Assembly: GCA_964556485.1 (NCBI GenBank)
Contig: CAZKVV010000004.1
Location: 57,618-121,617 of the forward strand
Reading direction: 5' to 3'
From: an uncultured Pseudomonadales bacterium
GTDB lineage: Bacteria; Patescibacteriota; Microgenomatia; UBA1400; PJMF01
DNA length: 64,000 nucleotides
The notes under the pieces were generated by a model that was given only the letters and a program-made list of their open reading frames with translations, searched no databases and had not been told where the DNA came from. The first letter of the stretch is position 1. The number at the start of each line of letters is the position of its first letter. Both the position numbers and the translations under genes were made by a program. Below are positions 4,122 to 64,000 of the stretch, piece by piece.

Positions 4122-4146
4122 GTTATAGGATTAAATAATAAAGTTG

Positions 4147-20699: not shown

Positions 20700-20782
20700 C
20701 GGAGAGCGAGGGATTCGAACCCACGGGCCCCGAAGGGCGCGGTTTTCAAGACCGATGCGATTGACCACTCTGCCAGCTCTCC
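20700..20782 (-). tRNA. tRNA-Ser (anticodon UGA), class II with long variable arm
   Basis: Minus-strand GGAGAGCUGGCAGAGUGG...CGGUCUUGAAAACCGC...GCCCUUCGGGGC...GGGUUCGAAUCCCUCGCUCUCCG. Anticodon loop CUUGAAA. One U-U mismatch in the T stem. Confidence 0.8.
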
Positions 20783-21631: not shown

Positions 21632-21705
21632 GCGTCCATAGCTCAGTTGGATAGAGCATCAGTTTGCGGAATTGAAGGTCGCAGGTTCGAGCCCTGCTGG
21701 GCGCA
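21632..21705 (+). tRNA. tRNA-Arg with anticodon GCG
   Basis: GCGUCCAUAGCUCAGUUGGAUAGAGCAUCAGUUUGCGGAAUUGAAGGUCGCAGGUUCGAGCCCUGCUGGGCGCA aligns arm-for-arm with E. coli tRNA-Arg(ACG). Anticodon loop UUGCGGA. Confidence 0.75.
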
Positions 21706-21735
21706 CAACTTTTATTGAATTTCCCACAACTTCCT

Positions 21736-21824
21736 GGAGGGATGTCGGAGCGGTTTAACGGCCAGCTCTCGAAAAGCTTGGGGGACTCTGTCCCACGGGG
21801 GTTCGAATCCCCCTCCCTCCGCCA
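21736..21824 (+). tRNA. tRNA-Ser (anticodon CGA), class II, CCA encoded
   Basis: GGAGGGAUGUCGGAGCGGUUUAACGGCCAGCUCUCGAAAAGCU...GGGGGACUCUGUCCCAC GGGGGUUCGAAUCCCCCUCCCUCCGCCA. Anticodon loop CUCGAAA. Confidence 0.85.
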
Positions 21825-31762: not shown

Positions 31763-33745
31763 CTAGTATACAATCACCCCTCCAGGGCTCACTTGATCCT
31801 GAATGATCATTTCCACAATTGGATTTTCTAGTTTTTCTTGAATAACTCGTTGCAAGCCTCGAGCTCCATACTTTGGATCATAAGCAGACTCTGCTAAAAA
31901 TTGTATTGTTTCAGGTTTCACTTCAAGTGTTATGCCGCGGGCATAAAGTTCGATTGCAAGCTTGCGAATTTGTAATTCTGCTATTCCAATTAGTGACTCT
32001 ACATCTAGGGCTTTAAATACTACGACATCATCAAAACGATTTAAGAACTCTATTCTGAAATAATCTTGCATTATTTCTTTGATTTCTTTTTCAATTTCAT
32101 ACTGTTGCTTTCCTTCTTCTATCAAGTCTAATATATCTTCTATACCTGCATTTGATGTAGCAATGATCATGGTATTGCGAAAATCTACCAACTTTCCTCT
32201 TCCATCCGTGAGCCTGCCGTCATCTAGAATTTGCAAAAAAACATCGAATACTTTTGGGTGTGCTTTTTCGATTTCATCAAGTAAAACTAGCGAGTAGGGT
32301 TTATTTTTTACAGGATTAGTAAGTTGTCCACCCTCTTCAAACCCTACATATCCTGGAGGTGCGCCAATGAGTCTTTGCACAGTATGTGGTTCAGAATATT
32401 CAGACATATCAATTCTAATCATATTTTCTTCATCACCAAAAATCTCATGTGCTAATACTTTTGCAAGTTCGGTTTTTCCAACTCCAGATGGACCTACTAA
32501 TAGAAATGAACCGATAGGCTTGTTCATTTTATTCAAACCTAAACGAGAGCGCTGAATGCTCCTTGCGATTTTGGTGATAGCATGGTTTTGTCCTTTTACT
32601 CTTTGTGAAATACGTTCGTCTAATTGCGAGAGGTCTTTTTTATCATAATCGGTTAAAGATGCGATTGGTATGTTTGCTTTTTGAGATACGACGACGCGCA
32701 CTAATTCAGGAGTAACTTCTGTTTCATTTTGATTTTTTGTAAAATGAGCAACTTCTTCCATGAGACTAATTCCTTTAGCAGGAAATGAAAGTTCGCTGAT
32801 GTGTTGTCTTGTTAACTTAATTATTTCTTCAAGTGAGTTGTCTGCGTACACAACTTGCGTTTGATTTGCAATGCGTTCTTGATGTACTGACAAAATTGCT
32901 CTAAGTTCGTTTTGGTCTGGCTCACTTAGTATTGAGACGTCAAATTTGGATATCATTCCCGGTTGTTCTGCTGCAAATTTTCGATAAGATGTTTCACTTG
33001 AGGTGGCAATGACTTGCGTTTTGTCAATTAAAAAACTAATTTGAGCAGTAGAAAATGAGAACAGTTCATCAAGGAAAAATAAACTCTTTCCCTCAGAAGA
33101 AGAAAGAATATTGAGCACTTGATCTTCAAGAGTGTCAGACCCTGGGAACAGTTGAAAGGTTTGTCGTGAGCCCGCAAGCCGCATCACAGTTTTAGCAAGT
33201 GCTGTTTTTCCAACACCAGCAGGCCCAATAATGAGTACGTTGTTTCTTTCACTCAAGTGCAGTACACGAAGAGCGTTGTTAATTTCTTGTTTTCTACCAA
33301 TAAAATCTACATCACTAGCGAAATCATGTAGTTTGTGCAAATTCTTCCTAAGTAATTCTTTAAGGACATTTGAATAATGTGAATCGAGTTTTTCTTGCTC
33401 TAATATTTTAAGGGCGGCTAAGAATACAACATGCTCGTCTGTATCAGGGCAAGATAATACTCTTCGTTGGATAGCGCATTCGTGTAAAAAGTCTTGATGA
33501 TATTTTTTTTCTTTTGTTAATCCAAATTGAAAGTGATTTTTTGGTTGATTTTGTTCGGAAATGATTCTTTCTAACTTTTCGGAAAGAGAATCAGTGGAAA
33601 AAAGAGATTGTAGAGTTGGGCTTGCGCTCAATGATTCCTGTGCAAAATGAGCAGCGAACTGCGCTTTTGATTGCCCAATCTCAAGTGTGGTATCTGAAAG
33701 TGAGTGAAAATAGTCCATAGTAAGTGAATAAATTATTATACGCAA
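31763..33745 (-). CDS. Clp/Hsp100-family AAA+ ATPase (ClpC/ClpA-like, two AAA modules, lacks canonical N-domain and ClpB middle domain)
   Basis: D1 Walker A GPAGVGKT and Walker B FFLDELF. D2 Walker A GPSGVGKT, Walker B LVLLDEIEKAH, sensor ATSN and the C-terminal GARGLQRVIQ motif. Confidence 0.8.
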   Translation of the reverse strand: MRIIIYSLTMDYFHSLSDTTLEIGQSKAQFAAHFAQESLSASPTLQSLFSTDSLSEKLERIISEQNQPKNHFQFGLTKEKKYHQDFLHECAIQRRVLSCPDTDEHVVFLAALKILEQEKLDSHYSNVLKELLRKNLHKLHDFASDVDFIGRKQEINNALRVLHLSERNNVLIIGPAGVGKTALAKTVMRLAGSRQTFQLFPGSDTLEDQVLNILSSSEGKSLFFLDELFSFSTAQISFLIDKTQVIATSSETSYRKFAAEQPGMISKFDVSILSEPDQNELRAILSVHQERIANQTQVVYADNSLEEIIKLTRQHISELSFPAKGISLMEEVAHFTKNQNETEVTPELVRVVVSQKANIPIASLTDYDKKDLSQLDERISQRVKGQNHAITKIARSIQRSRLGLNKMNKPIGSFLLVGPSGVGKTELAKVLAHEIFGDEENMIRIDMSEYSEPHTVQRLIGAPPGYVGFEEGGQLTNPVKNKPYSLVLLDEIEKAHPKVFDVFLQILDDGRLTDGRGKLVDFRNTMIIATSNAGIEDILDLIEEGKQQYEIEKEIKEIMQDYFRIEFLNRFDDVVVFKALDVESLIGIAELQIRKLAIELYARGITLEVKPETIQFLAESAYDPKYGARGLQRVIQEKLENPIVEMIIQDQVSPGGVIVY

Positions 33746-49499: not shown

Positions 49500-51389
49500 C
49501 TATGCTACTAGATCCCATTCTCTGAGTTTCTCAACATCTCCAGATTGAATTTTGAATAAACTAGCGTATAAATCGTCTCGCTTCATTAACTCTGCGTGAG
49601 TGCCTTGCTCAAGAATTTTTTGTTCTTTGAAAACAATAATATTATCAGCTCTTTGTATTGTTGAAAGCCTATGGGCAATAATAATTGCTGTCCGGTTGGA
49701 GAGCAATTTCTTTAATGCTTGCTGAATATACATTTCAGATTCTGAGTCTAAGGCGCTGGTAGCTTCATCTAAAATAATTATTTTAGGATCGCGAAGAACC
49801 GTGCGAGCTAGTGACAATCGCTGTCTTTGGCCGCCAGATAACTTTACACCGCGCTCACCAATAATGGTTTTCAATCCTTCGGGGAGTTGAGAAATAAACT
49901 CATCTGCATGTGCTACTTTGCAGGCATCCAACATTTCTGCTTCAGTAGCAGTAGGTTTTGCATATCGTAAATTTTCTTCAATTGTTTCGGCAAATAAATT
50001 TGAATCTTGGCTTACTAATCCTAAATGCAAACGCAAATCATGTTGCTTCATTTCTCTAATATCCACGCCATCAAGCATAATTGAACCTTCTGATACATCG
50101 AAAAATCTCATGATTAAACTGGCAATGGTAGATTTGCCAACTCCGGATGGACCAACTAAAGCAGTAGTTTTATTTGGTTCAATAGTAAATGAAATGTCAT
50201 CGAAAACTTTGAGATTTTCAATCCTAGATGGTTTAACTTCCCGTCCTTTATTAATTTCAGAGTCAAACTCAACAATTTGTTGTGGTTCATAAATAAAGGA
50301 AACATTTTTGAACTCAATTTTGCCTTCAACAGTTTTCAAAGTTACTGGCTTACTGGGGTCAGTAACACGAGGTTGGATGGAAATAATTTTCATGAAATCT
50401 TTAGCACCAATTTGTGCACGTTTAATTTCCCAAAAAATCCAGTTAATTTGCCAGAGTGGTCCACGAATGAGCTGAATTAGTCCGACAAGTAATATCAATG
50501 TTCCCACTGTAATATCTCCCAGCCATGTTAAATACACGATGTATGCGTACATGCTCCAACTGAAAGCTTCTAAAATTAGGTCAGCGCTCACAGCTTTAAA
50601 ACTGTTCCACTGCATTTGGGTACGTAGCGCTAAGTATTCTTTGAAAAAAGCAATGAATTTTTTACGTTCAAAATCTTCCGAACGAAAGGCTTTTATAAGC
50701 TGCATTGAACTAATGACTTCAAAGAAGTGACTATATTGTTCATCGTATAGTTTGTATTCTTGTCTTTCTAAGACCTCATCTTTCTTAAAACGCCAACGAC
50801 TAATGAGGGCGTAAGGAATAAAAGCTATAACAGTTAAAATGGCAACTCTCCATTCATGAAAAACCACAATGCTAAAAGCAACTACGGCAGTGGTAATACT
50901 TGGCAAAGAGTGAATTCCAAAATTACTGACTATTCCAGAGAGTCTGTTTACACCTCTGTCTAACTTGCTCATAACTTTGCCACTTGGCTGGTCATGAAAA
51001 AAATCGAGTGAGAGTCTCATTAAGTGATCAAAACCAATTTGTTTGAGATGCGATTCGAGTTTAACCGAAAATATGTTTGTTATAAAAAAGGAAGTCGCGT
51101 TGAGAATACTTTGAATGATTTTAACCGTAAGTAGGATAAGTAAGGTTGTAAAAATACTTGACCATGCAATACTCGCTTCTTTTTCCACTAAGATGTCGGT
51201 AATTTCTTTTGTAATAAATGGTTCGACCTGATTCAATCCTGCCATAACCACAATTAAAAGTGTTATTGTCAGTAACATTTTCCAATATGGTTTTGCAAAT
51301 GACATTGCACTAAGAAACATAGTTGTGATTTCCGCTATACAATTCCAAATAATGCTTGGAGTTATACCTACACTATACACTTGCTTCAC
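49500..51389 (-). CDS. ABC transporter, fused permease/ATPase (type I exporter, MsbA/bacteriocin-exporter-like, no C39 domain)
   Basis: Six TM helices plus NBD. Walker A GPSGVGKST, signature LSGGQRQRLSLAR, Walker B IIILDEATSALD. Confidence 0.85.
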   Translation of the reverse strand: MKQVYSVGITPSIIWNCIAEITTMFLSAMSFAKPYWKMLLTITLLIVVMAGLNQVEPFITKEITDILVEKEASIAWSSIFTTLLILLTVKIIQSILNATSFFITNIFSVKLESHLKQIGFDHLMRLSLDFFHDQPSGKVMSKLDRGVNRLSGIVSNFGIHSLPSITTAVVAFSIVVFHEWRVAILTVIAFIPYALISRWRFKKDEVLERQEYKLYDEQYSHFFEVISSMQLIKAFRSEDFERKKFIAFFKEYLALRTQMQWNSFKAVSADLILEAFSWSMYAYIVYLTWLGDITVGTLILLVGLIQLIRGPLWQINWIFWEIKRAQIGAKDFMKIISIQPRVTDPSKPVTLKTVEGKIEFKNVSFIYEPQQIVEFDSEINKGREVKPSRIENLKVFDDISFTIEPNKTTALVGPSGVGKSTIASLIMRFFDVSEGSIMLDGVDIREMKQHDLRLHLGLVSQDSNLFAETIEENLRYAKPTATEAEMLDACKVAHADEFISQLPEGLKTIIGERGVKLSGGQRQRLSLARTVLRDPKIIILDEATSALDSESEMYIQQALKKLLSNRTAIIIAHRLSTIQRADNIIVFKEQKILEQGTHAELMKRDDLYASLFKIQSGDVEKLREWDLVA

Positions 51390-53047
51390 CGCAAATCACA
51401 AAACATTTTATTTTTGAATGCTTCGTTTCTATCCCCCCAATATTTCTCGATAAAGTTGCGGAATTCTTTATCTTCTGAGTGTGAGAGACTATGCACTCTA
51501 AGGTTGCTTAATTCATTTAGTATAACAGGCAGCTGGGACGATAATCTCAGTCCAATATGTGATAAAACTATGCTCAATCGATATATTTCTTCTCTATTTC
51601 TAGATTCATAAGTATCAAGAACTAGATTTGTTTTGGCAGATAACAAGGTATGTAGTTGTTTTAAGTATTCAATCATATCTTTTTGCATTCTCGTTAGGGT
51701 TAATCTTTCAAGCCTTGCGAATTTTTCCTCAATTTCCAAGCATTTTTGTTGCAATTGTTCTTTAGCTAGGGCAACAAATTCGCCCAACTGATGGTTTGGA
51801 ATATCTAGGCTGCAAAAGTGAGCTAGGGTTTCTTCAAAATATTGAATTCCAAGCGCATCTCTAGAAATACCCACTAAAATTTCATCTAATCGATTCGTTC
51901 GTTCTTCATCATTCCATTCCGAGTCATCACCATAGATCTCACCAGAATTTGTCATAATAGGCTGCATAAAAATGATTTTATGATCAAGAAATCGTCGTAT
52001 TTCATTTCTACTTTCGTTTTTATCACTTTTAATTTTTAAGTACATCCATATTGAATCGAACATAAACAATCGACCATCTTGGATGGGCAATTCAAAATTT
52101 CCTGTTCGATTTATTGGTGTTGCTGCTACCATTGAAACTGAGCGAGAATTATCTGGTGAGAGAACAACCCCATCTAAACAAGCGGGTGAACCAATATCTT
52201 CCATTGCATCTTGTCGTTCTAAATTCTTTCCTACAAGCTGAAGACCTTTGCCACTTTTTGCATCTTTCGGTTTCACATCAATCATCTGTTTCATGAGAAA
52301 GTTAACATGATTTTTTGATAATCCACGTTCATATAATTTTTTTTCAATCAGCGCTAAACACACTTCTGCTCTTTGTGCATTGTGCCCACTAATGCTGAGG
52401 TTTATTTTGGTTGGACAAGAATAAGTTTCAATCGAAATGTCAACAATTCTTAGTGCCAAATCCACAAATACATCTTGAGAGCCAGTCGGTAAAGATGTAT
52501 TAATTGTTCTAGTCATCACGGGGCATTTGACTAATAGAAGTTGGTATACATCCAATGCAGTTTTCTCACCATCTCGATAATCTAAAAAATCGGTGTTGAA
52601 ATACGGATAGACTTTGTAAGGAGCATTGTCTTGAATTTGTTGTCCATATTTTGTAAAGAATGCTTGCATGGAATTAAAACTAAATGTATGAGTGATTCCC
52701 CTCGGTTTTTCGCCTAAGAAGCAATAACTACAACCGCCATTACATCCTCTGGTAAATTCAATTGCAACAATATTTTTTAAGATAAATTCTTTTGTTGAGT
52801 CGTCAAAATTTTCAAATGTTTTCAGTAGATCAATATGTTTTACGCGCTCTGCATTAGCACTGTGTTCTGGCTGTAAAAACCACATCTGTTCTAATGCAAC
52901 TCTAGCTTCATTTCGGACACCTTCGTCAAAACTTCCCGACATTGCCAGTAGATCTTGTTTACCAGCCTTTGGACTCACGCCCCACTCCATCATCATGAGG
53001 AATTCTGTTGCTAGTTGGGGGTTTACCTCACTGAGATCATTACACAT
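51386..53047 (-). CDS. Radical SAM enzyme (553 aa, non-SPASM), function unknown
   Basis: CxxxCxxC cluster motif in AIEFTRGCNGGCSYCFLG. 4-nt overlap with the ABC exporter gene. Confidence 0.7.
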   Translation of the reverse strand: MCNDLSEVNPQLATEFLMMMEWGVSPKAGKQDLLAMSGSFDEGVRNEARVALEQMWFLQPEHSANAERVKHIDLLKTFENFDDSTKEFILKNIVAIEFTRGCNGGCSYCFLGEKPRGITHTFSFNSMQAFFTKYGQQIQDNAPYKVYPYFNTDFLDYRDGEKTALDVYQLLLVKCPVMTRTINTSLPTGSQDVFVDLALRIVDISIETYSCPTKINLSISGHNAQRAEVCLALIEKKLYERGLSKNHVNFLMKQMIDVKPKDAKSGKGLQLVGKNLERQDAMEDIGSPACLDGVVLSPDNSRSVSMVAATPINRTGNFELPIQDGRLFMFDSIWMYLKIKSDKNESRNEIRRFLDHKIIFMQPIMTNSGEIYGDDSEWNDEERTNRLDEILVGISRDALGIQYFEETLAHFCSLDIPNHQLGEFVALAKEQLQQKCLEIEEKFARLERLTLTRMQKDMIEYLKQLHTLLSAKTNLVLDTYESRNREEIYRLSIVLSHIGLRLSSQLPVILNELSNLRVHSLSHSEDKEFRNFIEKYWGDRNEAFKNKMFCDLR

Positions 53048-53049
53048 TT

Positions 53050-53247
53050 TTATGCATCCCTCTTGATCATGCGCAGCTCAATCTCAGCCATTTTTTTTAT
53101 AGCATTCACCATTTGCCTAACGTATTCTTCTTGATTTGGGCAAAGCTTTTCTGTCTTCTGTTTAGGTTTGTAAGTTTGATTCATATAGTGTGATATCACA
53201 CTCTGATTTTTTTGAGAAAAATCGGAGTCATTTTTAGTTGTCCACAA
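53050..53247 (-). CDS. Small ORF (65 aa) translationally coupled to the radical SAM gene, possible precursor or accessory peptide
   Basis: TTG start 9 nt after a GAAGG. Its stop lies 2 nt before the rSAM ATG and the rSAM RBS AGAGGGA sits inside its 3' end. C-terminal amphipathic helix. Confidence 0.35.
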   Translation of the reverse strand: MWTTKNDSDFSQKNQSVISHYMNQTYKPKQKTEKLCPNQEEYVRQMVNAIKKMAEIELRMIKRDA

Positions 53248-53268
53248 CGTGTTGTTGCCTTCAGCTTA

Positions 53269-56200
53269 TTAAGCAGCATCAATCAATTGTTCAACCCTCT
53301 GTCGTTGTTCATATTCGCCGATTTTTGGCAAAACAACTAGCTTCACGGCATTTTTAACACTTTTTTGATCAAACTCCTCTAAGTCGAAGATGATTTCTTC
53401 GGTTTCACGCTGAGTGAATACAAACTCTACGATGTCGTTTGATTCATTTCGTTGATAAGCGCGGTAAGCTTGACGTACTTTGTTTGCAATTCTTACTAAG
53501 AGGTCTAAGGCACTAATGGCTTGTAACCGCTCTGGCGTAGCGAATATATCTCCGCCATTAACCGCATCACCATTAACCGCATGGTTCCACAACTTCGTAA
53601 ACTCCTCCTTATTGAGTGTTCTCAAATCCTCAGCTCGTTGAGCAAGAATGAAGGCTTCGTCAGGACGTTTTCTGACCTTTGTGAATCCTTCAGTTGATTT
53701 GCCACTTGGGACTGTTTGAGTTTCAACATTAACTCGCTCGTACTCTCCATTAACTTTTTCAATCACGTTGTAAGGTTGGTAATCTACTTCTATCACTCTG
53801 GCACGGCTCTTAAACTCTTGTGCCAATGGCTGAGTACCAATATAGTTTTCTGGATTCATGGTGCCAATGAGCAAATTATCTGGATGTACTTCAATCTTTT
53901 GTCCGATGCCATTGGTGTTAAGCTCAACATAATCAGGGTCTTCACCTTGAGTGAAGTACAACGTGCGGCGGTAGTCAAAAACCGAGTTTAACATTTTAGT
54001 TACTTCTGCAGGCATGGCGTTAATTTCAATCAAGTTGATAATTACACCAGGTTTAGAGAGAGCTTCAGCAAACTTAGCGGGTACGCGATAAGTGCCTTTC
54101 TTGGGATCGAATCTGAACTCTGAAGTAAGATCCTCGGGGTCCATTGTTTTGCGACAGGGAATATTAACTACTTCGTAATTTGTTAAGGCTCCAAATGCGT
54201 CAATATTAAAGTCTTTGCCCACACCAGCGTCACCTTGCATGATTAGCAATCCTCTTGGAGTTCTCACTCGGTTCAGTTGTTTATCCAAACCCAACTGTGC
54301 TCGCAAGTTACGCGCCATATTACCGAGTACTTCTAAAGTGTATTCGGTCATCCTAAGTTCGCGACTAAGTGGAGGAACTTCACGTTTGGGATTAAAGTGC
54401 GTTTCCGCACGAGCTTTAGCTTTTTGATAACGAGGATCACTGTCGTCGACCCTCATATTCATGTAGACACCACTGCGCCAAATCCCAGCATTCTGACTCT
54501 CGAAAGCTAGTTCACCTTTATACTCAGCTCTTTGGTCGGCAGTAAGTTTTGAGAAGTCAATTTTCTTACCATCTGTACCCCAAACGATGGGCGTTACCCA
54601 TCCTGGAGAGAAGAGTATCTGGCGATCCCTGAATGTTGGGAATGCTTCACCAGCTAGTACTCTAACTTTCTCGCGCTCTATTGTTTTAGTCGCTTCTTTT
54701 TCTTGTTCGAACCGCTGAACTCTTTCCCGAAGGAGAGAAAGATACTGTTGATCATAATCAGCACGGCGACTCTCAGGAAGATGATTGATCAACTGTCTAA
54801 CACGTTCAGAGCGTGGATGGTTAAATGCCCATGCTTCAAGATTAATTCTACCCTCAGTCTCACCCAAGACCGCATCAATATCTTCCTGAAGTTCGCGTAA
54901 AGCCTCGGCTATCTCTCGAACAACTTCCTCAACTCTTGCTTCTTGTTCTCTTTTTCTTTCATCTGTTTTTGTCTGAATCTCTGAGCGTTTCTTCTGGCGG
55001 ATCTCACCCCAAGCAACTCTCAAGCGTCGTCTTTCTTTAGCATCGGTAACGAGATTTAATCTAGAGTTAAACCGTTCGACGACAGGATCTTTCTCCAACT
55101 CACTTAATTCGTTGATGCTCAGCGCTGGTTGAATAGCGGCTTCCATTTCCGACAACATCCCTTCCAAAGAAGTGACGAGTTGGCCTTGGAACTCCTTCTG
55201 TAATTCAACAATTCTTTCGGAGGAATGCTCAAGGCTTGTTTGAACTTTATTTCTCAAATCACCTTCTAGCACCTGCAGGTTTGCTGACTGCCGCATTTGA
55301 CGAACTTCTTCAAGCCTTTGCGCTACAGCAATGCTTTGTTCTATGGTTGTTGCCAGGCGGACACGTTGTTCCAAATCCTCAACAGCTTCCACTAAGACCT
55401 TTGCCTTAAACTCGTTTCTTCTTCTTTCAAAAGCTTGTTGCACTGTGGCAAAAGCTTCTGGGTACTGCTGATAGGGGTCTTTTTTTCTTAAAACTGAGAG
55501 CTTTGCCTCTAGTTTAAGCAGAGCTTGTTCATCGGTTGCTGACTGAACTAATGGTAAAAATTCTCCCTCTAATTTAACCTTCAGAGCTTCCTTAATATCG
55601 TCATTACTGACTGTTTTTTCTTGTTTTCTCTGTAGTGCAGTTACCTTTTCTTCGAGATCATTCGCAACAATATTATCTATGTCTAATTGTTCGATCTCTG
55701 AAAGTAGTGCCTTCATCTTCTGTCGTTGCTCTTCTAACATTCGCGACATTTGCTCGGGATCAAACTGAGCAAAGTTGGTGGTAATAATTCTTAGTTGGTT
55801 GTTGTCGTCAACAAAGTAGAGATTGCCAGCCTTATCTGCGCCAACATTACTTTTAATTCCTGCAAATGCGTAGTGTTTAGTCCGAGATTTCTTATCGAAA
55901 ATAGTTAGCTGATTATCACCATGCTTAACAATAAGAAAATTGCCTCGAGGATCCATAATTACTTGTTGGATATTGTCTACATCGAGCAAATCAATTGTTT
56001 CCGAATTAAGAAAACCGCTTTCCATGCCAGTTAGTGAAAACTTATGAAGTTTTCCATTCTCCGTAAAATAAACAGTATCACCATCTGAAGGATCGAGCAC
56101 AGGGCGAGGATCAGACAATGCTCTAATTTGTCGCTCAAAGCCACTTTCATTTTTGTTATAGATTCGGGTTATTGTCTGACCATCAGACACTGCATAAATA

Positions 56201-56895
56201 CCTGTTTTATTCTTAAATAGTGGCAAAACTTCGCTTGGAGATTTTTTCCAGTTTTTTAGGTCAGGTCCATCGACAGCCAGTGCAACCGCCTCACCCATAA
56301 TTTCGAGTGTGACAATATTACCATCCACCGACATTACTGTTGTTGGTCTTTTAATTAACTGCTCGTCACTAACCATACCGATATGATGATCTTTTAAATC
56401 TGAGGGTGATAAAAACCACGAATCAACAGTTTTTTTTTGACTCAAACTAGTCTGTTGAAGTATCTTAACTGCAAGTTTCTGAATTTCTTCTCTATCCTTT
56501 GACGCATCTAGCCCGGGAACAAATTGGGCAATTATTTTATTAAGATTCACTCCGCCAAATTGTTTAACAAAAGCCTCTGTTCCGATAAAATTTCTGTCGC
56601 TTGTTTTTAATGCTACTAAAGCTAATTGAATAATTTTTCGGCATGTAAAGCTTGTCCTGATGTTTGGAAAAATTTCTTCCAAACTCTTCATCTGACCCTG
56701 TGGAGAAATAACGACTATGTGAGAGCTAGTACTTTTTGAAGCAAAAACCCATCCATTTTCAAGAACAGCCACCGATGATAAGTCTGTGTTTGTTTCTGAT
56801 GCTGATGTCTTGAAATAATCTGGAGAATGAAGGATGGTCTGTGGTGCAGGAACTTTTGTTTCATGCAAATTTTTGTTAAATTCTGTCATATTCAT
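53269..56895 (-). CDS. Giant protein: beta-propeller-like N-terminal region, ~500-aa coiled coil, C-terminal dynein-related AAA_5 (MoxR-like) ATPase domain with degenerate Walker motifs
   Basis: LLIMQGDAGVGKD (Walker A with Lys-Asp), VIINLIEINAMPAEVTKMLNSVFDYRRTLYF (AAA_5 llDEiNla...r region with IE for DE), LLIGTMNPENY...SRARVIEV (sensor1/Arg). Long heptad-like E/R/K/Q-rich stretch at aa ~370-800. Confidence 0.65.
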   Translation of the reverse strand: MNMTEFNKNLHETKVPAPQTILHSPDYFKTSASETNTDLSSVAVLENGWVFASKSTSSHIVVISPQGQMKSLEEIFPNIRTSFTCRKIIQLALVALKTSDRNFIGTEAFVKQFGGVNLNKIIAQFVPGLDASKDREEIQKLAVKILQQTSLSQKKTVDSWFLSPSDLKDHHIGMVSDEQLIKRPTTVMSVDGNIVTLEIMGEAVALAVDGPDLKNWKKSPSEVLPLFKNKTGIYAVSDGQTITRIYNKNESGFERQIRALSDPRPVLDPSDGDTVYFTENGKLHKFSLTGMESGFLNSETIDLLDVDNIQQVIMDPRGNFLIVKHGDNQLTIFDKKSRTKHYAFAGIKSNVGADKAGNLYFVDDNNQLRIITTNFAQFDPEQMSRMLEEQRQKMKALLSEIEQLDIDNIVANDLEEKVTALQRKQEKTVSNDDIKEALKVKLEGEFLPLVQSATDEQALLKLEAKLSVLRKKDPYQQYPEAFATVQQAFERRRNEFKAKVLVEAVEDLEQRVRLATTIEQSIAVAQRLEEVRQMRQSANLQVLEGDLRNKVQTSLEHSSERIVELQKEFQGQLVTSLEGMLSEMEAAIQPALSINELSELEKDPVVERFNSRLNLVTDAKERRRLRVAWGEIRQKKRSEIQTKTDERKREQEARVEEVVREIAEALRELQEDIDAVLGETEGRINLEAWAFNHPRSERVRQLINHLPESRRADYDQQYLSLLRERVQRFEQEKEATKTIEREKVRVLAGEAFPTFRDRQILFSPGWVTPIVWGTDGKKIDFSKLTADQRAEYKGELAFESQNAGIWRSGVYMNMRVDDSDPRYQKAKARAETHFNPKREVPPLSRELRMTEYTLEVLGNMARNLRAQLGLDKQLNRVRTPRGLLIMQGDAGVGKDFNIDAFGALTNYEVVNIPCRKTMDPEDLTSEFRFDPKKGTYRVPAKFAEALSKPGVIINLIEINAMPAEVTKMLNSVFDYRRTLYFTQGEDPDYVELNTNGIGQKIEVHPDNLLIGTMNPENYIGTQPLAQEFKSRARVIEVDYQPYNVIEKVNGEYERVNVETQTVPSGKSTEGFTKVRKRPDEAFILAQRAEDLRTLNKEEFTKLWNHAVNGDAVNGGDIFATPERLQAISALDLLVRIANKVRQAYRAYQRNESNDIVEFVFTQRETEEIIFDLEEFDQKSVKNAVKLVVLPKIGEYEQRQRVEQLIDAA

Positions 56896-56919
56896 TCACA
56901 TTATTAACTATTACTTTTT

Positions 56920-59235
56920 TTATTGGCCCTGCCTAAGTCTTTGACCTATTCTTCTCAAAATTGGCGTCATCACTCTCCTGGTTTCTATCGTCAGTTGACC
57001 CATGTTTTCGGGAATTATTACTCTATCTTCCCCAAAATATGTGTCTAAGCCAGCTTTTATTCGTTGCTTTTCATCCCGACTATTGGATAGACCAAAAGCG
57101 AAAAGCTCAAATACCTTTTTGATCTCGTCGATTTTTTCTACTAACGGTTGGCCGGTCAAACCACTGTTTGGTTCACCGTCTGTAAGAAACATAATAACAC
57201 CCTGTGAACCAGGAAATCTACGTCTTGAAGCGAGCAATTGTTCGTAGGCACTCACTACACCAGCTTCGTAGTTGGTACTACCATGCAATGATTTCGTTTG
57301 AGCAATGAGTTTGGCCTTAATTCGTTGTTCAGGAGAGGAGAATGGTTGATTAGGGTTTTTAAGCACTGATGAATTAGAACCCATAGTAATGATTCCAGAT
57401 GGAATGTTGTACTTCTCACACAACATCATCCACAAAATAAGATCTTTTAAAGATTCGTCTAACTTAGCGCCATGCATGCTGCCCGTAATATCGATAACAA
57501 ACCAAATGAATGTTTCAATTTTTTGCGATAATTCAATATCCTTTCTTGTATTAAAGCGACTGTCTCCAACGGGGAATTTACGAGCTGCCTGACGAGCGTC
57601 AGGTCTACCCGAATAGAAATAACCTTGCTGAGTCATGATCCACTCACGAGGGAATGCTTTCATCACTTGCTGATCCATCGATCTGAAATCAGCCATCATT
57701 TCGCGTTCCAACTCCTTGTATCGATCGTAGTTACCCTCTTCATCTTCTCTAAAACCAGCCTCTCTCATTTCGCGAAGTTTTCGTTCTTTTTGCTCGCGAG
57801 CTTTTTGTTTGGCTTCCTGTTTTTGTTGCTCAGCTTGTTGTTGTTGTATGTCGTGTTGTTCACGCTGTTGCTCTTCTTTCTCAAACTCTTCCAATTCCTT
57901 CTGGGCTTTTTCCACTTCTTTTTGATCAGCTGTTTGAATCTTTGGCTTGAATTCACCAGTTTCTTCATCTTGCTCCATCTGTATCATCTGTGGTGCTTCT
58001 TTATTAAGCTTTTCACTTTGTTTTTGATCGGTTTGTTTGCGAGCATCTTCTTCAAGTTTTTCTAATGCTTGAGGATTAAGATTTTTCAAAAAAAACTCCA
58101 GTTGCTCGCGTGTTTCAGTAGAGAGTTCATTCAAATCCATCTCACACTCACTTGTTTCTGGATTTTCTCCTTGGCTTCCCGGTCGTTGCTCATCAGGTTG
58201 AGCGCTAGATTGCCCCTCTGACTGTTGAGAACTTTGCAAGCCGCTTTGTCGTCCGGATTGTGATTGTTTAGATTGGCTAGAGCTTTGGCTTCCTTGCTGC
58301 ATTTCCTGTTTGATCTTTTGTTTCAAATCTTCAGGAAGTTGAGGTTGTCCGCTGCCACCCCGTCCATCTTGACCCTCATTGCCTTGCCGACCCTCCATGG
58401 CTTGTTGAGCCATATTCCTTTTTACTTGATCCTCAACTTCTTCCTTCTCGAGGTCTCTTACTTGCGGCCAAATCTCTTCAGAAAATGTGTGGAAATTTTC
58501 CAGTGCAGACTTACTGGCGTAAAAACGATCAAGTGCTGGTCGCACTTTATCCATAACTGCTTGTACTCGCTCGTCTATACTAGGCAAGTCTTGGCCTGTT
58601 AACCAGTAATTGATAGCGTTAACACCAAACTGACGTGGTAGGGGATCATGAGGAATCTGGGTGGCAATTTCCTTAAGTTTACGCAAGTACCCACGTTTTA
58701 GATCTTCAAGCGCCGCTTGGGATTCTCCGGCAGACATGGCGTTAACCCAACCATCTTCGGGACCATTAAGCAGCGATCCATAGGTCGATGGTAGGAATCC
58801 TTGTTCCTTAGCCAATCTCATCCCTTGAAAAAAGAATTTGAAATCTGAGTGAGCAGCGTGGGCAGCCTCGTGTCTTGTTTTCCTGGTAATTTCTATCTCA
58901 GGATCACGGTATAAATCGTTCTTTCTAAAAGTGATGAGATTGGGAACTAAAGCCTGAGGAGGCAGGTGATCTAGATTGTCAATTTTACCACAAATATATG
59001 CATCAACAGCTTGAGCGTATTCTGGGTCAATACCACAAGTCCATGGTCCTTCGCCATCTAGTGCCGCAATCTTAAGGTCATAACGACCACTGAAAACCCT
59101 TGAAAGCCATGAAATCTGTTTCATTACCCTTCGAATTTCTTCCGGCGATCGCCTTTCATCATCTAATAGTTTGTTTTCAGATATAGATGAAGGGCTAATA
59201 GCCTCACCCGGCATACGGGAGATTTTTTCAGACAT
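56920..59235 (-). CDS. vWA (MIDAS) domain protein with N-terminal HExxH zincin-like domain and central Q/E/K-rich coiled-coil linker (DUF2201-like architecture)
   Basis: HEAAHAAH near aa 110. About 250 aa of low-complexity QQ/EE/K repeats. C-terminal FVIDITGSM (DxTxS MIDAS) ... FLTDGEPN vWA fold. Confidence 0.7.
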   Translation of the reverse strand: MSEKISRMPGEAISPSSISENKLLDDERRSPEEIRRVMKQISWLSRVFSGRYDLKIAALDGEGPWTCGIDPEYAQAVDAYICGKIDNLDHLPPQALVPNLITFRKNDLYRDPEIEITRKTRHEAAHAAHSDFKFFFQGMRLAKEQGFLPSTYGSLLNGPEDGWVNAMSAGESQAALEDLKRGYLRKLKEIATQIPHDPLPRQFGVNAINYWLTGQDLPSIDERVQAVMDKVRPALDRFYASKSALENFHTFSEEIWPQVRDLEKEEVEDQVKRNMAQQAMEGRQGNEGQDGRGGSGQPQLPEDLKQKIKQEMQQGSQSSSQSKQSQSGRQSGLQSSQQSEGQSSAQPDEQRPGSQGENPETSECEMDLNELSTETREQLEFFLKNLNPQALEKLEEDARKQTDQKQSEKLNKEAPQMIQMEQDEETGEFKPKIQTADQKEVEKAQKELEEFEKEEQQREQHDIQQQQAEQQKQEAKQKAREQKERKLREMREAGFREDEEGNYDRYKELEREMMADFRSMDQQVMKAFPREWIMTQQGYFYSGRPDARQAARKFPVGDSRFNTRKDIELSQKIETFIWFVIDITGSMHGAKLDESLKDLILWMMLCEKYNIPSGIITMGSNSSVLKNPNQPFSSPEQRIKAKLIAQTKSLHGSTNYEAGVVSAYEQLLASRRRFPGSQGVIMFLTDGEPNSGLTGQPLVEKIDEIKKVFELFAFGLSNSRDEKQRIKAGLDTYFGEDRVIIPENMGQLTIETRRVMTPILRRIGQRLRQGQ

Positions 59236-59462
59236 GTTTTTATAGTATCAAAGTATGGGTGAAACTTACACGAATAGATCAAACGCGATTTTTTTAATAA
59301 GCCCATTACAGGTCTGTTAAATTGAAAATGTTTAAAATGAGGAAATTTAGCAAGCCCTGCCAACCCATTTGGCGGTATTAGACGGGTCTGTTAGAACTTT
59401 TCAACTGTTGCGGAGCACCCGGGTCTGGAACCTTTTTATCCTAATACTGAACTATGTAAGCT

Positions 59463-59657
59463 CTAGTCGTTTTCCAGCCATGGACCCTCTTTAATGATGT
59501 TCCTAAGAATTTTCATTTGTTGAACTGATAGTTTTAGTAACTCACCTAAATCTTTTTTGAAATCTTCATTAATAGCTATTTCTTGAAGAGATTCATATTT
59601 TTGAGCCAATCTAGATTCAGCTGCTAATGCTTCAGCGATGTCTGCAATGTTTGCCAT
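59463..59657 (-). CDS. Small helical protein (64 aa), hypothetical
   Basis: ATG ORF MANIADIAEALAAESRLAQKYESLQEIAINEDFKKDLGELLKLSVQQMKILRNIIKEGPWLEND. RBS AAAGGAG 6 nt upstream. Flanked by TCTGTTAGAAC direct repeats. Confidence 0.4.
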   Translation of the reverse strand: MANIADIAEALAAESRLAQKYESLQEIAINEDFKKDLGELLKLSVQQMKILRNIIKEGPWLEND

Positions 59658-59862
59658 AACAAGCTCCTTTCATATGTTAATCTAATTATAGATCACTGTA
59701 GTTTGGATCATCGGATGCGGAGACTAAGGAACTCTGTTAGAACCTGGTTTAAGTCCTCAGATCTAGACGGATTTTACATATACTCGCCATCCTTTGCATA
59801 GATTCAAGTTTATTTTAACTGGTTAGTCTTAATATTGGACACTTCGCACACGGGTTTGTGGA

Positions 59863-62800
59863 CTAAATCAGATAAAATGTGTGTACTGTCTTGGAACTTG
59901 AAATCTGGAATGAATGACTGATTCTTGCTTCAGGTTTATAAAATCTTAAGGCTAAATACTTATCAACTCCCTCGCCAACTCGATTTGTTAATGGATGCCA
60001 ACTGTCTTGTTCAGGAATCATCACCTGAGAGATTCCATTGTCTGCTGCGATCTGCATAACCATATCAACCATCTGATCGCATAAAACTGCAGTATTTGTC
60101 GAAGAAATAATACTAGAAGATGGATTGAAGCCTCTGAAAATCAAAGTTGGTTGATTATCAACGGTTGTTTGATATCCTTGAATATTCCCTACAACAATAC
60201 CTTGATTATTGACTAAATTAACATGAAAATGATCTGGTCGGTGATATAACTCTATATCATGAGCCGTACACACTCCTGCAGTAGTCTTCGCAAAATATGA
60301 GGCTGCGTTTTTTGTAACATATCCAGTTAATATTAAGGTTGGGTCAACCTCTTGCCCCGCTTTATCTCTAAGTACAACTTTTCCTAATTCTGTTTCTACA
60401 CGCTTCCTCAGTCCTTTTGATCCAGAAAACATTGTTCTTTCAGTCATGAATGCTAAAAGTTTGGCTAAGTGCTGGCGTTTTTCAACAACGGACTTATTTT
60501 CGCGTAAACCAGAAATAATTGATGCAAAAGAGGCTTTTTCCTCTTCTCTCATTATCCTTGATCCACCAATATTTTTCTCCAAAGTTGCAAGTTTTTTCTC
60601 AGTCAACATACTGAGCAAACGGTCAGACACCATTGGATTTTCATCTAAAAACTTTGCGACTGCTTCACCTGCATTATCTTTATAATAAACCCCAAATAGT
60701 TCTTTAGCTTTTGATAAAAGGTTATTTTTATCAGCAACTTGAGAAGTGTCTCCAGTCATTTTTTCTGTATATTGATCAATTTTATCTCCGAGCGATACAC
60801 GCAAGCATGCAATCACTTCTTGTAGAGAGGATGTAAATAAATCCTCAGTTTTGGTTGCACCTGCCTCGGTTAATAATCGAGTCCAGCCTTTTAAAGCCAT
60901 CGCAGTATCACCACCAGAGGCAATGTAATCAGACGTTTGTTCGTTTCTAAATATGACTTTAACTAAATTAACAACTCCTTCGTCAACTGGTTTGTCCGCA
61001 CTTCTTAATTCAGCTACTTTTTCTTTTGAAGCAATGCTTCCTCGATATCCACTCTCTCGAAAATGCATTCCACTAATATCATCACAATGATCACCAACTC
61101 TAGCTAGCTCTAACCTAACAGAATTAACATCTGTACTTGGAAATGTTAAGCAAATCATTTCAGCCATGAAGTCTATGCCACTACTTCCACTCGTTAAATC
61201 CATAAGTGGCACATTCCTATGAACATTTTTACGGAATGCTTTTACCCTATCCCTGTGATTTTCCCTAGAAAGCTCATCTGCTTCTAATATGTAACCCCTA
61301 ACTAATGATGGTGTGATATTTCTAAACTCTTCCATTGCTTCCAAAAGACGCTCTGTGTATAAGGGGTTAGTCATGATTCTAGCAACATCTTCGCCTGAAA
61401 TTGTCTGAAACGTTGTTACACAGCTATTAAAACTAGTGGGTTTGGTGTTTAGCATCCTTTTAAAGAATCTGGCGTACCCATCTTGTTCTAGGTTAGCTTG
61501 TAACCAATCTAATGACGACTTCGTTGTATAAAAAACATTTTGACTATTCAAGCCAATTGTCGCCCCCAATTGATGTAAGTAAGCTGGCCGAACTTGAGAC
61601 AAAATTTGATTGGTTTGAGGATTTTGTACTAAACTCCTAAATCGGTCGAAATCTGTTAATTTCCAGCCTGCGGACATCATGTGAGCCGACAAAACTCCGT
61701 TTTGCTCCCAATATGAGGCTCTATCTGGAATTAAAGCATCATATTTAGGATCGTTTGATTGGTCATGAAATCTTGCCAATGTTTGGATATATTCGACTGA
61801 TAATTCAAACCCATACGCAACTGCAAATGGCGCTATAAATGAATTACTCAGATTCCCGTTTTCAGCTAAGTCTTGTGATAGTGCATCATACACGTCATTA
61901 AAATGACGCGCACACATGTCTTTATCATTTTGTATTCCAATTATTAAACTTGCTCTAATTTCGCGTTTTTCAGCATTGTTGAATGTGGAAGCATCAAGAT
62001 TGTAGTCGGCGAGAAAACTTTGTGGCTGTTCTTTGGCAATTAGTCCCACTAAAGCAGATGTGGCTTTATGATCATCGACAAGAGTATTAAATATTTCTTT
62101 TTTGCCTATTAGTACTTTTTTAAGATATCCTTTCGCTCCCTTCCAATATCTCCAGTATTTCTGTGTTTCTTCTGGCATTTGTTCTAATGCCTGCTCAGTG
62201 ACCAAAGAGGCAAGAGTGTCTAACTCAACAGTCTGGCTTGTGGACAATTCTGTCAATAAATGTTCAGACGCCGATCCATTTACGACATACGTATTAATTT
62301 CTTCTCTTCTTTCTAGTATGAATCCATGCAACTCGTCCTCGTCATGTTGTCGCCAAAAATCCCAAAAGACCTTTCCTTCAGCCGTCATTCCTGCCAACGC
62401 TTCGTCGGAAATTAATGATGTAATTAATCTGTCGCCGACCCGCAATCTGTCTGATACTAAATTCTCTAATAATAGCTCCGTCGCCACACCATTAACAACC
62501 AATAAATCAAAATTCGATCTTTGCTTGATTAGATAATCATGCAAAACGTCAGCATCATGTTTCTTCCAGAAGCCCCAAAATTTTTCCCCTTCATCGCCCA
62601 TGGATTCCAAAGCGTCCTTTGTGATCATCCATGTCGCTTCTCTGAATATATTTTCTTTATTTCTATTACGAATAGTGTCACGACCAGATGATTCGTCTGC
62701 ACCTGAAATTAATTCATCGAGCCATTTTTGGGTTGGCACACCTTTTTCATTGACATAAGAGTCTATGTTGAAATCAGCTTCTCCCCGATGCCTAGTTAAT

Positions 62801-64000
62801 AATTCTATATAAGCATTAATCCCCGATGTTTTTGCTTTATTTCGACCATAATGTAGCTGAGGATTTGCATAAGAATCTGCCTGATGGTCAATGAGTAAAA
62901 ATAGCCTTTGACCGTAACTCTCATTACTGGCTAACTCGCATAAAAACCCCAAGGAAACTTTTCGATTGCCTCGGTTGTCTTCCATTTGAACACTAAATTC
63001 GGCGTCTTGATTTAGTTGATGAGCAAATTGCCACACGCATTGTCTACCAGTATCTTTGAGTCCAAAATACTCTCTAAGATCATTTGCCGATATTACGTTT
63101 TGACAATATAAACTTGGGATTTCAACTCCAACTCGTTTCAGTTCTGAAACCAATCTTTGCCTATCATCGTCGTTAACACCTGATAAAGTTTTAAATATTT
63201 CAACCGTCTGGCTGTTAAACGTTGCAAGAGGATTATTTAGTTCTTCCCTCAGTCTCAATATTTCATCATTAGGAATGGTTGCGAGTATTTTTAGTGTTAA
63301 TAAATCAGAGTTTGAGCGCACACAAAAACCGTCTGATGTTAATAATTTTTGTCTTTGAGCAATTATCTCGCGCTTTTTATATATACTAAGCCATTCATCT
63401 GGATTACGAAGAATAGTATCCCACTGTTCGCCTTGATTATTATTGTTTTGAAGTACGATACTAACAAACGCTCTATCTAGTCCCATCTGTCTTACTTCTG
63501 GTCTCAATAGTGTTTGTACTCTACCTTTCATTTCTTCAATAGTTATTTTTTCCTGGCCTATAACAGTTATCACATTCAACTTTGATGATTTTAAGTCATC
63601 AGATATCTCAGACAATGGTTTGAACACTTCCCGTACTTCTTCCAAAGAGAAATCCTTTAAAGAATCACCAATATCCTGCCATAAGTAATATCTGCTTAGC
63701 GCCCCATCTCCGCCGTCTTGATCCCTCGTCAAAGTTGTGCCTGTTAATTGCGTTATTAATAAAGATTTTTCTAATCTATCTGGATCAGATTTCCTAACAT
63801 AGTCTTTAAAATCGTATCCATCCGCACTCAAAGGCATTTTCCGACCGTATTTAGCTAGAACTCTAGCATTTTGTCTTAATGAGTCGTTTGCGCAAACAGC
63901 TTTAAAGCTAGCTTGATGATTTTCTACAAAAACTTTCGGGTTTGCGGAATCTGTAGTGCTGCGATCATTAAAATGAAATCCCCAACTTACATCAAACCCG
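59863..64000 (-). CDS. Giant hypothetical protein (over 1324 aa) with three internal ~65-aa repeats. Reading frame stays open to the window edge, so it is possibly N-terminally truncated here
   Basis: First ATG at 63837, but the frame has no stop from 63838 to 64000. Repeats contain (F/Y)WxFWK ... VVNGxAxELL motifs. No TM or signal peptide. Confidence 0.6.
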   Translation of the reverse strand, partial: GFDVSWGFHFNDRSTTDSANPKVFVENHQASFKAVCANDSLRQNARVLAKYGRKMPLSADGYDFKDYVRKSDPDRLEKSLLITQLTGTTLTRDQDGGDGALSRYYLWQDIGDSLKDFSLEEVREVFKPLSEISDDLKSSKLNVITVIGQEKITIEEMKGRVQTLLRPEVRQMGLDRAFVSIVLQNNNNQGEQWDTILRNPDEWLSIYKKREIIAQRQKLLTSDGFCVRSNSDLLTLKILATIPNDEILRLREELNNPLATFNSQTVEIFKTLSGVNDDDRQRLVSELKRVGVEIPSLYCQNVISANDLREYFGLKDTGRQCVWQFAHQLNQDAEFSVQMEDNRGNRKVSLGFLCELASNESYGQRLFLLIDHQADSYANPQLHYGRNKAKTSGINAYIELLTRHRGEADFNIDSYVNEKGVPTQKWLDELISGADESSGRDTIRNRNKENIFREATWMITKDALESMGDEGEKFWGFWKKHDADVLHDYLIKQRSNFDLLVVNGVATELLLENLVSDRLRVGDRLITSLISDEALAGMTAEGKVFWDFWRQHDEDELHGFILERREEINTYVVNGSASEHLLTELSTSQTVELDTLASLVTEQALEQMPEETQKYWRYWKGAKGYLKKVLIGKKEIFNTLVDDHKATSALVGLIAKEQPQSFLADYNLDASTFNNAEKREIRASLIIGIQNDKDMCARHFNDVYDALSQDLAENGNLSNSFIAPFAVAYGFELSVEYIQTLARFHDQSNDPKYDALIPDRASYWEQNGVLSAHMMSAGWKLTDFDRFRSLVQNPQTNQILSQVRPAYLHQLGATIGLNSQNVFYTTKSSLDWLQANLEQDGYARFFKRMLNTKPTSFNSCVTTFQTISGEDVARIMTNPLYTERLLEAMEEFRNITPSLVRGYILEADELSRENHRDRVKAFRKNVHRNVPLMDLTSGSSGIDFMAEMICLTFPSTDVNSVRLELARVGDHCDDISGMHFRESGYRGSIASKEKVAELRSADKPVDEGVVNLVKVIFRNEQTSDYIASGGDTAMALKGWTRLLTEAGATKTEDLFTSSLQEVIACLRVSLGDKIDQYTEKMTGDTSQVADKNNLLSKAKELFGVYYKDNAGEAVAKFLDENPMVSDRLLSMLTEKKLATLEKNIGGSRIMREEEKASFASIISGLRENKSVVEKRQHLAKLLAFMTERTMFSGSKGLRKRVETELGKVVLRDKAGQEVDPTLILTGYVTKNAASYFAKTTAGVCTAHDIELYHRPDHFHVNLVNNQGIVVGNIQGYQTTVDNQPTLIFRGFNPSSSIISSTNTAVLCDQMVDMVMQIAADNGISQVMIPEQDSWHPLTNRVGEGVDKYLALRFYKPEARISHSFQISSSKTVHTFYLI

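Follow-up and report, generated by a model that had tools for sequence, protein, structure and literature searches.

A divergent CobT-like VWA adaptor gene and its adjoining AAA_5 motor gene in an uncultured bacterium

Genes at the locus

The window analysed is a 64,000-nt stretch of contig CAZKVV010000004.1 from an uncultured bacterium. The gene in question is an open reading frame (ORF) on the minus strand encoding a CobT-like protein, here called the adaptor, and the gene directly downstream encodes an AAA_5-type ATPase, here called the motor (Table 1). The adaptor gene is interpreted, with a probability of about 72%, as the adaptor half of a two-gene CobS/CobT-type AAA+ motor/adaptor machine, that is, a MoxR-class AAA+ ATPase working with a von Willebrand factor A (VWA) protein. 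From the N to the C terminus the 771-residue adaptor comprises a zincin-like N-domain, a Q/S/G-rich tether, a helical extension, a pre-VWA segment and a VWA domain.

Five large genes lie across positions 49500-63837, all on the minus strand. In the direction of that strand these are a gene for a 1324-residue orphan protein, a 627-nt gap, the adaptor gene, a 24-nt gap, the motor gene (1208 residues) and a 221-nt gap, beyond which a radical-SAM-like gene overlaps an ABC exporter gene. The hairpin in the 221-nt gap is a match to the terminator consensus only and would fit a two-gene operon that ends there. A 64-residue ORF (59463-59657, minus strand) lies inside the 627-nt gap that precedes the adaptor gene; the phage-plasmid CobT-like genes described below likewise have a 60-70-residue hypothetical gene just before them.

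Table 1. Positions of the adaptor, its motor and other features; positions are those of the window unless a locus is named
Feature	Position	Strand	Remark
Adaptor gene, CobT-like	56920..59235	minus	ATG-initiated ORF, 771 aa
Zincin-like N-domain, homologous to CobT_N (PF06213) by profile comparison	58384..59154	minus	residues 28-284
HExxH motif H122-E123-A-A-H126	58858..58872	minus	on model helix 113-129
E160-D161 of N-[AG]-x-E-D motif	58753..58758	minus	on a helix 34 residues after H126
Q/S/G-rich disordered tether	58138..58383	minus	residues 285-366; 23% Q, 19.5% S, 14.6% G
Conserved helical and beta-hairpin extension, long charged helices	57649..58137	minus	residues 367-529; invariant residues L368...Q434
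Candidate pore-inserting shaft	57511..57648	minus	residues 530-575; highly conserved yet pLDDT <50
VWA domain	56923..57510	minus	residues 576-771; Pfam VWA, VWA_2, Foldseek, hhalign
MIDAS D582-I-T584-G-S586	57478..57492	minus	pattern D-x-[ST]-x-[ST]
Further MIDAS residue T654	57274-57276	minus	
Further MIDAS residue D686	57178-57180	minus	
Motor gene	53269..56895	minus	1208 aa; starts 24 nt after adaptor stop codon
AAA_5 module	53803..54246	minus	residues 884-1031; PF07728, E 2.1e-13
Walker A GDAGVGKD	54211-54234	minus	
Walker B region IINLIE	54025-54042	minus	
NHL/Pizza-like beta-propeller repeats	55789..56115	minus	residues 261-369; phmmer, designed Pizza propeller 6ren, E 4.8e-7
Long charged region	54616..55758	minus	about residues 380-760; composition and alignment
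Terminator-like hairpin	53200..53228	unassigned; reported on plus	221-nt gap after motor gene; 13-bp stem, then T run
Phage-plasmid CobT-like gene	L012:2501-4558		HExxH...NALED in PF06213
Phage-plasmid CobT-like gene	L013:2471-4786		HExxH...NALED in PF06213
Phage-plasmid CobT-like gene	L014:2465-4573		HExxH...NALED in PF06213
Phage-plasmid CobT-like gene	L015:2465-4822		HExxH...NALED in PF06213
tRNA-Val (CAC)	4146-4219		
tRNA-Ser (TGA)	20699-20782		
tRNA-Arg (GCG)	21632-21706		
tRNA-Ser (CGA)	21736-21824		

Domain layout of the adaptor

An earlier interpretation made from the letters alone (the sequence-only reading) had proposed a VWA domain with a MIDAS (metal-ion-dependent adhesion site) at the C terminus, and this was borne out. 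Profile searches of the C-terminal part were significant, with PF00092 (31.8 bits, cut-off 23.8) and VWA_2 (27.7 bits) matched at residues 577-723. The model of the full-length protein was only moderate (predicted local distance difference test score, pLDDT, of 62); Foldseek aligned it to solved VWA domains in 210 PDB matches at E ≤ 1e-3, NorD and Rea1-MIDAS among them. Residue conservation was counted, here and below, over the 53 longest of 74 relatives. Wherever a family member covers D582, S586 and D686, these residues are kept, and the full D-x-[ST]-x-[ST]...D pattern is intact in 51/53.

The N-domain (residues 28-284) was modelled with AlphaFold2 from a 33-sequence alignment to a pLDDT of 94.7 and a predicted template modelling score of 0.89, and is built of one helix, a sheet of three strands and about eight helices. 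The string HEAAHAAH, put forward in the sequence-only reading as a zincin-like HExxH motif, occupies residues 122-129 and stood up well: it is conserved, and the domain that holds it is confidently modelled as zincin-like. H122 is kept in 48, E123 in 50 and H126 in 46 of the 53 members, H129 in the close clade only. Further along, E160 is kept in 49/53 and D161 in 45/53, and 43/53 retain H-E-x-x-H together with the downstream acidic residue. Such retention of H/E/H and E-D across the family takes the HExxH far beyond chance occurrence.

In the model the HExxH lies on the active-site helix and is followed by the downstream acidic residue as a putative ligand. E160 is the candidate third metal ligand, and the modelled HExxH ... 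E160 layout is the gluzincin arrangement. The domain shares its core fold with minigluzincins and with M48 peptidases (projannalysin, selecase, HtpX, BepA), and its HExxH occupies the matching helix; the N-domain profile found nothing significant among PDB sequences. Because the putative site is kept in most members, and lost in 10/53 and in true CobT, metal binding is probably both the ancestral state and the one that still prevails.

The sequence-only reading had likened this N terminus to DUF2201_N (PF13203), and membership of the DUF2201 family of VWA-like putative metallopeptidases is very improbable. In its Pfam description, that family is similarly laid out, with an HExxH domain ahead of a VWA-type domain and a MoxR-type ATPase adjoining. 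However, searches of hidden Markov models against sequences left PF13203 and PF09967 unmatched in the window protein (E ≤ 1) and in the 53 members (E ≤ 0.1), and the significant assignment is instead to CobT_N and CobT_C, as given below.

The spacer between the N-domain and the VWA domain had been described as D/E/Q-rich and of low complexity, which holds in part. Residues 285-530 are rich in Q (17.9%) and E (17.5%), with 15% K+R and a net charge of -18 over 246 residues, but not in D (5.3%), so the acidity of the spacer is far below that of the linker in midasin. Only the tether, residues 285-366, is truly of low complexity. It was modelled with pLDDT <50 over most of its length (283-296, 317-364) and is the main insertion/deletion region among orthologues. 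In contrast, residues 367-529 are conserved and structured, with strands at 419-422 and 429-432 and helices at 439-493 and 497-527 in the model. In and near the segment that follows, residues F528, P529, G538, S542, G543, P545, A551, P555, G557 and S570 are conserved.

Homology to CobT

Profile comparison shows both ends of the adaptor to be distantly homologous to CobT. The N-domain alignment was matched by hhalign to CobT_N (PF06213, represented by six PF06213-positive proteins) at 97.4% probability with E 1.3e-11 over 194 columns; an unrelated VWA profile, used as the negative control, gave 0.1% with E 0.53 over 14 columns. The C-terminal region including the pre-beta1 segment was matched to CobT_C (PF11775) at 99.65% with E 4.4e-25 over 235 columns. 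Only comparisons of alignment against alignment were informative, and the family profile against single sequences gave weak values (CobT-like 5%, CobS 6%, phage-plasmid MoxR 21%). In direct Pfam scans of the 53 members, PF06213 was matched by none at E ≤ 0.1. CobT_C was matched by 32/53 (best E 1.1e-16), mainly through the pre-beta1 segment and the MIDAS loop, and its 21-bit cut-off was exceeded in 4/10 members scanned individually. On these alignments the N-domain is homologous to CobT_N, but lies beyond the curated family boundary.

The N-domain of CobT, whose crystal structure is reported to be zincin-like, has been described as one helix, a sheet of three strands and eight helices, resembling M48C and docking on the CobS lid; it is followed by a disordered linker of ~90 residues and then by a shaft entering the CobS pore, and the VWA domain carries MIDAS residues D422, S424, S426, N518 and D546 (bioRxiv 10.64898/2026.07.21.739949). 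The adaptor model and alignments match this reported layout element by element. CobT shares with the adaptor the order of zincin/M48C-like N-domain, disordered linker, pre-VWA shaft (a candidate one in the adaptor) and VWA domain with MIDAS. The tether is comparable with the CobT linker, and the adaptor MIDAS aligns with the D-x-S-x-S, N and D of CobT (hhalign). The segment at residues 530-575 aligns with the CobT stretch directly before beta1, and in family members it matches Pfam CobT_C positions 1-58. If the structures of CobST and NorQD are taken as a guide, this segment may act as a shaft. Residues 367-529 are proposed as the equivalent of the b0-a0'-a0 extension of CobT_C, whose hhalign match takes in the adaptor extension only from about residue 506. 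The linker and extension of CobT are much shorter than those of the adaptor.

An adjoining gene for a single-module AAA_5 ATPase is common to both systems. In the one true CobS/CobT locus compared (Methylobacterium, L016), CobT scores 328 bits with PF06213 and 391 bits with PF11775, and its CobS consists of CobS_N and AAA_5. There the motor gene precedes the adaptor gene, whereas at the present locus the adaptor gene comes first. CobS_N (PF12556) is absent from the motor of the window, which has instead an extension of ~850 residues and a GKD Walker A in a protein of 1208 residues. True CobT (L016:2478-4382) is without HExxH...ED, a motif intact in the present family.

A closer likeness in this motif was found in phage-plasmids. 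The most CobT-like family member, P0071, matches phrog_1576 (E 9e-20) and Acinetobacter plasmid genes (tblastn ~1e-14) annotated as CobT or 'porphyrin biosynthesis protein', on plasmids that carry phage-type genes. With the Acinetobacter protein as query, ~1,000 more plasmid records were retrieved, mainly enterobacterial and including Salmonella Typhi pHCM2 and Yersinia pestis plasmids. In 5/5 loci inspected a MoxR/AAA ATPase gene of ~400 residues then follows the CobT-like gene. When six CobT N-domains were aligned, the phage-plasmid proteins read GFLDHEVAHxLFTD ... NALEDxxxER, which is the same HExxH...ED as in the adaptor family pattern RHExGHAxHxD ... NAxEDxxxN; the E160-D161 pair aligns with their NALED. 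In the closely related Acinetobacter CobT-like protein of L011 the motif is degenerate (QEVAK), and dnaE lies nearby downstream in three of the five plasmid loci (L011, L013, L014).

These SSU5/pHCM2/pMT1-type pairs (phrog_1576, phrog_249) share with the present pair the adaptor-then-motor order and the kept HExxH and NALED, and no cobalamin genes were seen in the regions examined. They differ in their motors, which are ~400 residues against 1208 here, and in their adaptors, which pass the Pfam CobT and CobT_C cut-offs directly, as the window adaptor does not.

An adaptor with both ends homologous to CobT, next to a motor of CobS-like type, is what would be expected of a true adaptor of a cobalt or other tetrapyrrole chelatase, that is, of CobT function, yet this is the least probable of the alternatives considered. 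CobN-Mg_chel was not detected in the five genes at 49500-63837, in six other large ORFs of the window or in any related locus, which makes cobalt chelation unlikely. The genomic background is candidate-phyla-radiation-like, with Candidatus Shapirobacteria as the closest named relative; bacteria of that radiation are not expected to make cobalamin aerobically. True CobT, moreover, is without the HExxH kept here. A BchD/ChlD-type Mg-chelatase D subunit was rejected as well: TIGR02442 scored 23.7 bits against a cut-off of 779, and the N-domain is of zincin type, not AAA+.

The partner motor

The sequence-only reading had placed an AAA_5 module in the adjacent gene. The module was confirmed there by PF07728, and a functional link between the two genes is backed by their conserved pairing. 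The motor has a single AAA module, preceded by the N-terminal extension, and a Pfam scan at E ≤ 1 found no family in it besides AAA_5. Its sole PHROG match at E ≤ 0.01 is phrog_249, a phage CobS annotated 'porphyrin biosynthesis' (E 4e-13). The charged region of ~380 residues behind the propeller repeats is, from its sequence, probably a coiled coil.

Word-indexed searches with the full 1208-residue protein or an AAA-only profile returned almost nothing beyond the query itself, since words from coiled coils and P-loops swamp the candidates; partner sequences were therefore drawn from neighbouring loci. Across 6-11 of these the Walker A lysine and the Walker B glutamate are conserved (the glutamate invariantly), as are Asn, Arg and Arg at the expected sensor-1, arginine-finger and sensor-2 positions and a helix-2 insert hairpin, FxFDPKKGT[FY]RV. 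The canonical AAA+ motifs, Walker A GK[ST] and Walker B hhhhDE, are not present in the motor. In all 11 partners examined (window, L001, L004, L005, L007, L008, L017, L018 and P0088-P0090) the residue after the Walker A lysine is D or N, never S/T, and in several clades the Walker B Asp is replaced by I, V or N. GKN co-occurs with DE in 3/3, and GKD mostly with I/V/N-E. Strict covariation of the two motifs was rejected, as L018 combines GKD with DE, and the association is only a tendency.

The profile of the motor AAA module matched midasin in the PDB with E 9e-28, and the VWA model aligned to Rea1-MIDAS by Foldseek (E 1.7e-6, 302 columns, target-normalised TM-score 0.62). A charged linker also stands between the N-domain and the MIDAS domain. 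These observations fit the suggestion of the sequence-only reading that the pair may be a split bacterial midasin, taken here as a specific two-gene counterpart of eukaryotic midasin/Rea1. A broad kinship is supported by both matches: midasin belongs to the same AAA+ clade, and its VWA domain carries a MIDAS and sends a loop into the AAA ring (PMC13036017). MoxR-type AAA+/VWA pairs have already been placed as evolutionary kin of midasin, dynein and chelatases (PMC7159879), so the resemblance of the adaptor to midasin is real, but neither new nor specific.

The specific counterpart is highly unlikely. The E value of 9e-28 sums six midasin modules, the best single one of which reaches 27 bits against 34.5 bits for CbbQ (5c3c). 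There is one AAA_5 stretch in the partner and no AAA module in the VWA protein, whereas in midasin six AAA modules are fused, the linker is strongly acidic and D/E-rich, and the protein has a role in eukaryotic ribosome assembly; the linker of the adaptor is Q/E/K-rich. By profile, homology to CobT extends to the zincin domain at the N terminus and to the pre-VWA segment, and CobT/CobS are closer to the pair than midasin is. No zincin domain is known in midasin.

Other MoxR-class pairs, among them NorQ/NorD and CbbQ/CbbO, likewise combine an AAA_5 motor with a VWA/MIDAS adaptor that has an N-domain and a linker, and individual components were matched directly: the adaptor VWA model by NorD (9qh6_G, 9qhd_G) and the motor by CbbQ. 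The N-domains of NorD/CbbO-type adaptors are not known to be zincin-like. The clients of these pairs are known (cNOR and Rubisco), and their motors have ~270-380 residues against 1208. By structural analogy, a finger-in-pore mechanism is likely the principle shared with NorQD-type pairs (PMC13036017).

Distribution of the family and pairing of the genes

A word-indexed search of 5.8 billion proteins returned only 11 close homologues of the adaptor, at 47-74% identity, one of them annotated to a metagenome-assembled Candidatus Shapirobacteria genome. An exhaustive HMMER search with the N-domain profile extended the family to the 74 representative relatives (E ≤ 1e-3), mostly metagenomic; the named sources of family members are one Shapirobacteria and one Elusimicrobia protein. 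Most of the 74 are 600-1000 residues long and fit one architecture, and the others are shorter and probably fragments. Scans with the close-clade alignment found one species-representative genome and one metagenome contig, and no relative in viral contigs. When the phage and plasmid collections were searched by tblastn with the window adaptor, nothing matched at E ≤ 1e-3.

An AAA_5-type gene, encoding 1133 residues or more, follows ~5-25 nt downstream of the adaptor gene in L001-L005, L007, L008, L018 and L020, the motor gene of L007 being truncated by the contig end. In L017 the partner has 592 residues and lies within 2 kb, with two small genes between, which means that the giant size of the motor is not universal. 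The adaptor and motor are the only conserved unit across related loci; the flanking genes vary and are mostly housekeeping. A conserved third upstream gene was considered and rejected, as the 200-220-residue upstream proteins of L004, L005 and L008 are mutually unrelated.

Some individual loci showed further arrangements. In L017 (5429-14636) the P0071 adaptor gene comes directly after rplE in a ribosomal-protein operon, ahead of the two small genes and the 592-residue AAA_5 partner. In L010 (338-3542) the gene for P0066 (618 residues) starts 8 nt inside the end of a diversity-generating-retroelement reverse-transcriptase gene, with a bAvd gene just upstream. In L008 (9460-12693) and L018 (6812-9313) the pair is followed by a third gene with a restriction-endonuclease-like MTES_1575 domain; at both loci the zincin motif of the adaptor is degenerate and the motor Walker A reads SEAGxGKD.

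An ATP-gated metalloprotease or conflict system, in which the zincin would be an active peptidase effector and the MoxR-type motor and VWA domain a threshold switch releasing or activating it, is a possible but unlikely explanation. HExxH...E is intact in 43/53 members on a zincin fold. The MTES_1575 neighbour, seen only in L008 and L018, and the retroelement before the L010 member also fit such a role, and a switch of this kind has been proposed for MoxR-vWA conflict systems (PMC7159879). Against this, the flanks are mostly housekeeping, and the conserved third component of the ternary conflict systems described there (VMAP, iSTAND, FtsH and beta-propeller types) was not found; neither adaptor nor motor had a PADLOC match, and the bpMoxR conflict-system model gave none in the motor at E ≤ 1. 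The zincin motif is lost in 10/53 members while nearly all keep MIDAS, which argues that the peptidase site is dispensable, and the homologous CobT_N serves as a docking domain.

Proposed mechanism

For the favoured CobS/CobT-type machine, a mechanism was drawn by analogy with the electron cryo-microscopy structures of CobST, with its shaft in the pore (bioRxiv 10.64898/2026.07.21.739949), and NorQD, with a finger in the pore and stretching of the linker (PMC13036017). The motor would form a hexamer, whose central pore would be entered by adaptor residues 530-575 as a shaft and whose conserved helix-2 insert hairpin would grip it. The zincin-like N-domain would dock on the ATPase lid domain, and docking is probably its indispensable role. 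ATP hydrolysis would then turn the VWA domain relative to the docked N-domain, straining the tether, and a client at the MIDAS site would be remodelled. More speculatively, the beta-propeller and coiled-coil extension of the motor may be a client-binding platform, perhaps replacing a separate effector subunit.

Three points weigh against the CobS/CobT-type interpretation. The window protein has no match to Pfam CobT (PF06213) or CobT_C (PF11775) at E ≤ 1, so its relation to CobT is drawn from profile-profile comparison and from other members of the family. The alignments used for the CobT comparison were small, with six sequences each. ATP hydrolysis is not certain either, since in Walker A the Ser/Thr is replaced by Asp and, in this clade, the Walker B Asp by Ile.

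A bolder extension is possible but unlikely. The adaptors of uncultivated bacteria and phage-plasmids may preserve the ancestral CobT, an active zinc metallopeptidase with VWA/MIDAS, tether and AAA+ ring, in which a client held at the MIDAS would be cleaved under the control of twisting powered by ATP. True CobT would be a later, docking-only version that had lost its protease site, and the nucleotide site of the motor would be without precedent, with Asp or Asn for the Mg-coordinating Ser/Thr of Walker A and a dispensable Walker B Asp.

Four elements are new: a CobT-like family of uncultivated bacteria that is deeply divergent and falls beyond the limits of the Pfam families; a zincin motif kept intact both in this family and in the CobT-like proteins of phage-plasmids; a giant motor with an extension of propeller and predicted coiled coil; and a conserved deviant Walker A. 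In the literature no paper was found describing the divergent CobT-like family, the intact zincin motif, the giant motor or the GK[D/N] Walker A. MoxR-class AAA+/VWA pairs and their kinship to midasin are already known, and the split-midasin idea restates that kinship (PMC7159879).

The findings would tie a rare, mostly metagenomic family to the CobS/CobT motor-adaptor machine, the structure of which has only just been described. They extend the CobT N-domain family to members with an intact HExxH...E, including widespread phage-plasmid 'porphyrin biosynthesis' genes, and so offer a view on the evolution of chelatase adaptors. They also suggest a testable idea for non-chelatase CobST-like pairs, namely metal- or protease-coupled remodelling. 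For enzymology, the conserved GK[D/N] form of Walker A is a minor oddity. The present understanding of MoxR/VWA systems is not overturned.

Other features of the window

The 1324-residue protein upstream of the adaptor (59863-63837, minus strand) has no significant family match and, as a neighbour of the pair, is not conserved. Three tandem repeats of ~75 residues lie in it at 392-476, 470-531 and 545-597 (BLAST E 6e-16, 2e-7). A Scabin-like C terminus was considered and rejected, as the match was not significant (E 0.19) and the PDB gave no relevant match. Besides the four tRNA genes of Table 1, no Rfam family was found at gathering score in the 64,000-nt window.

A 660-residue ClpB/ClpC-type protein with AAA_2 and ClpB_D2-small is encoded at 31763-33745 on the minus strand, and its first ATPase domain also matches AAA_16 and STAND-type NTPase models. 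Downstream of the motor gene, two genes occupy 49500-53047 on the minus strand. One is the gene for a 553-residue radical-SAM-like protein with CNGGCSYC at residue 102, weakly matched to PoyD-type epimerases of ribosomally synthesised and post-translationally modified peptides (E 7e-5, far below the cut-off). It overlaps by 4 nt the gene for a 629-residue ABC exporter of MsbA/bacteriocin-exporter type, with which it may form a peptide maturation and export pair.

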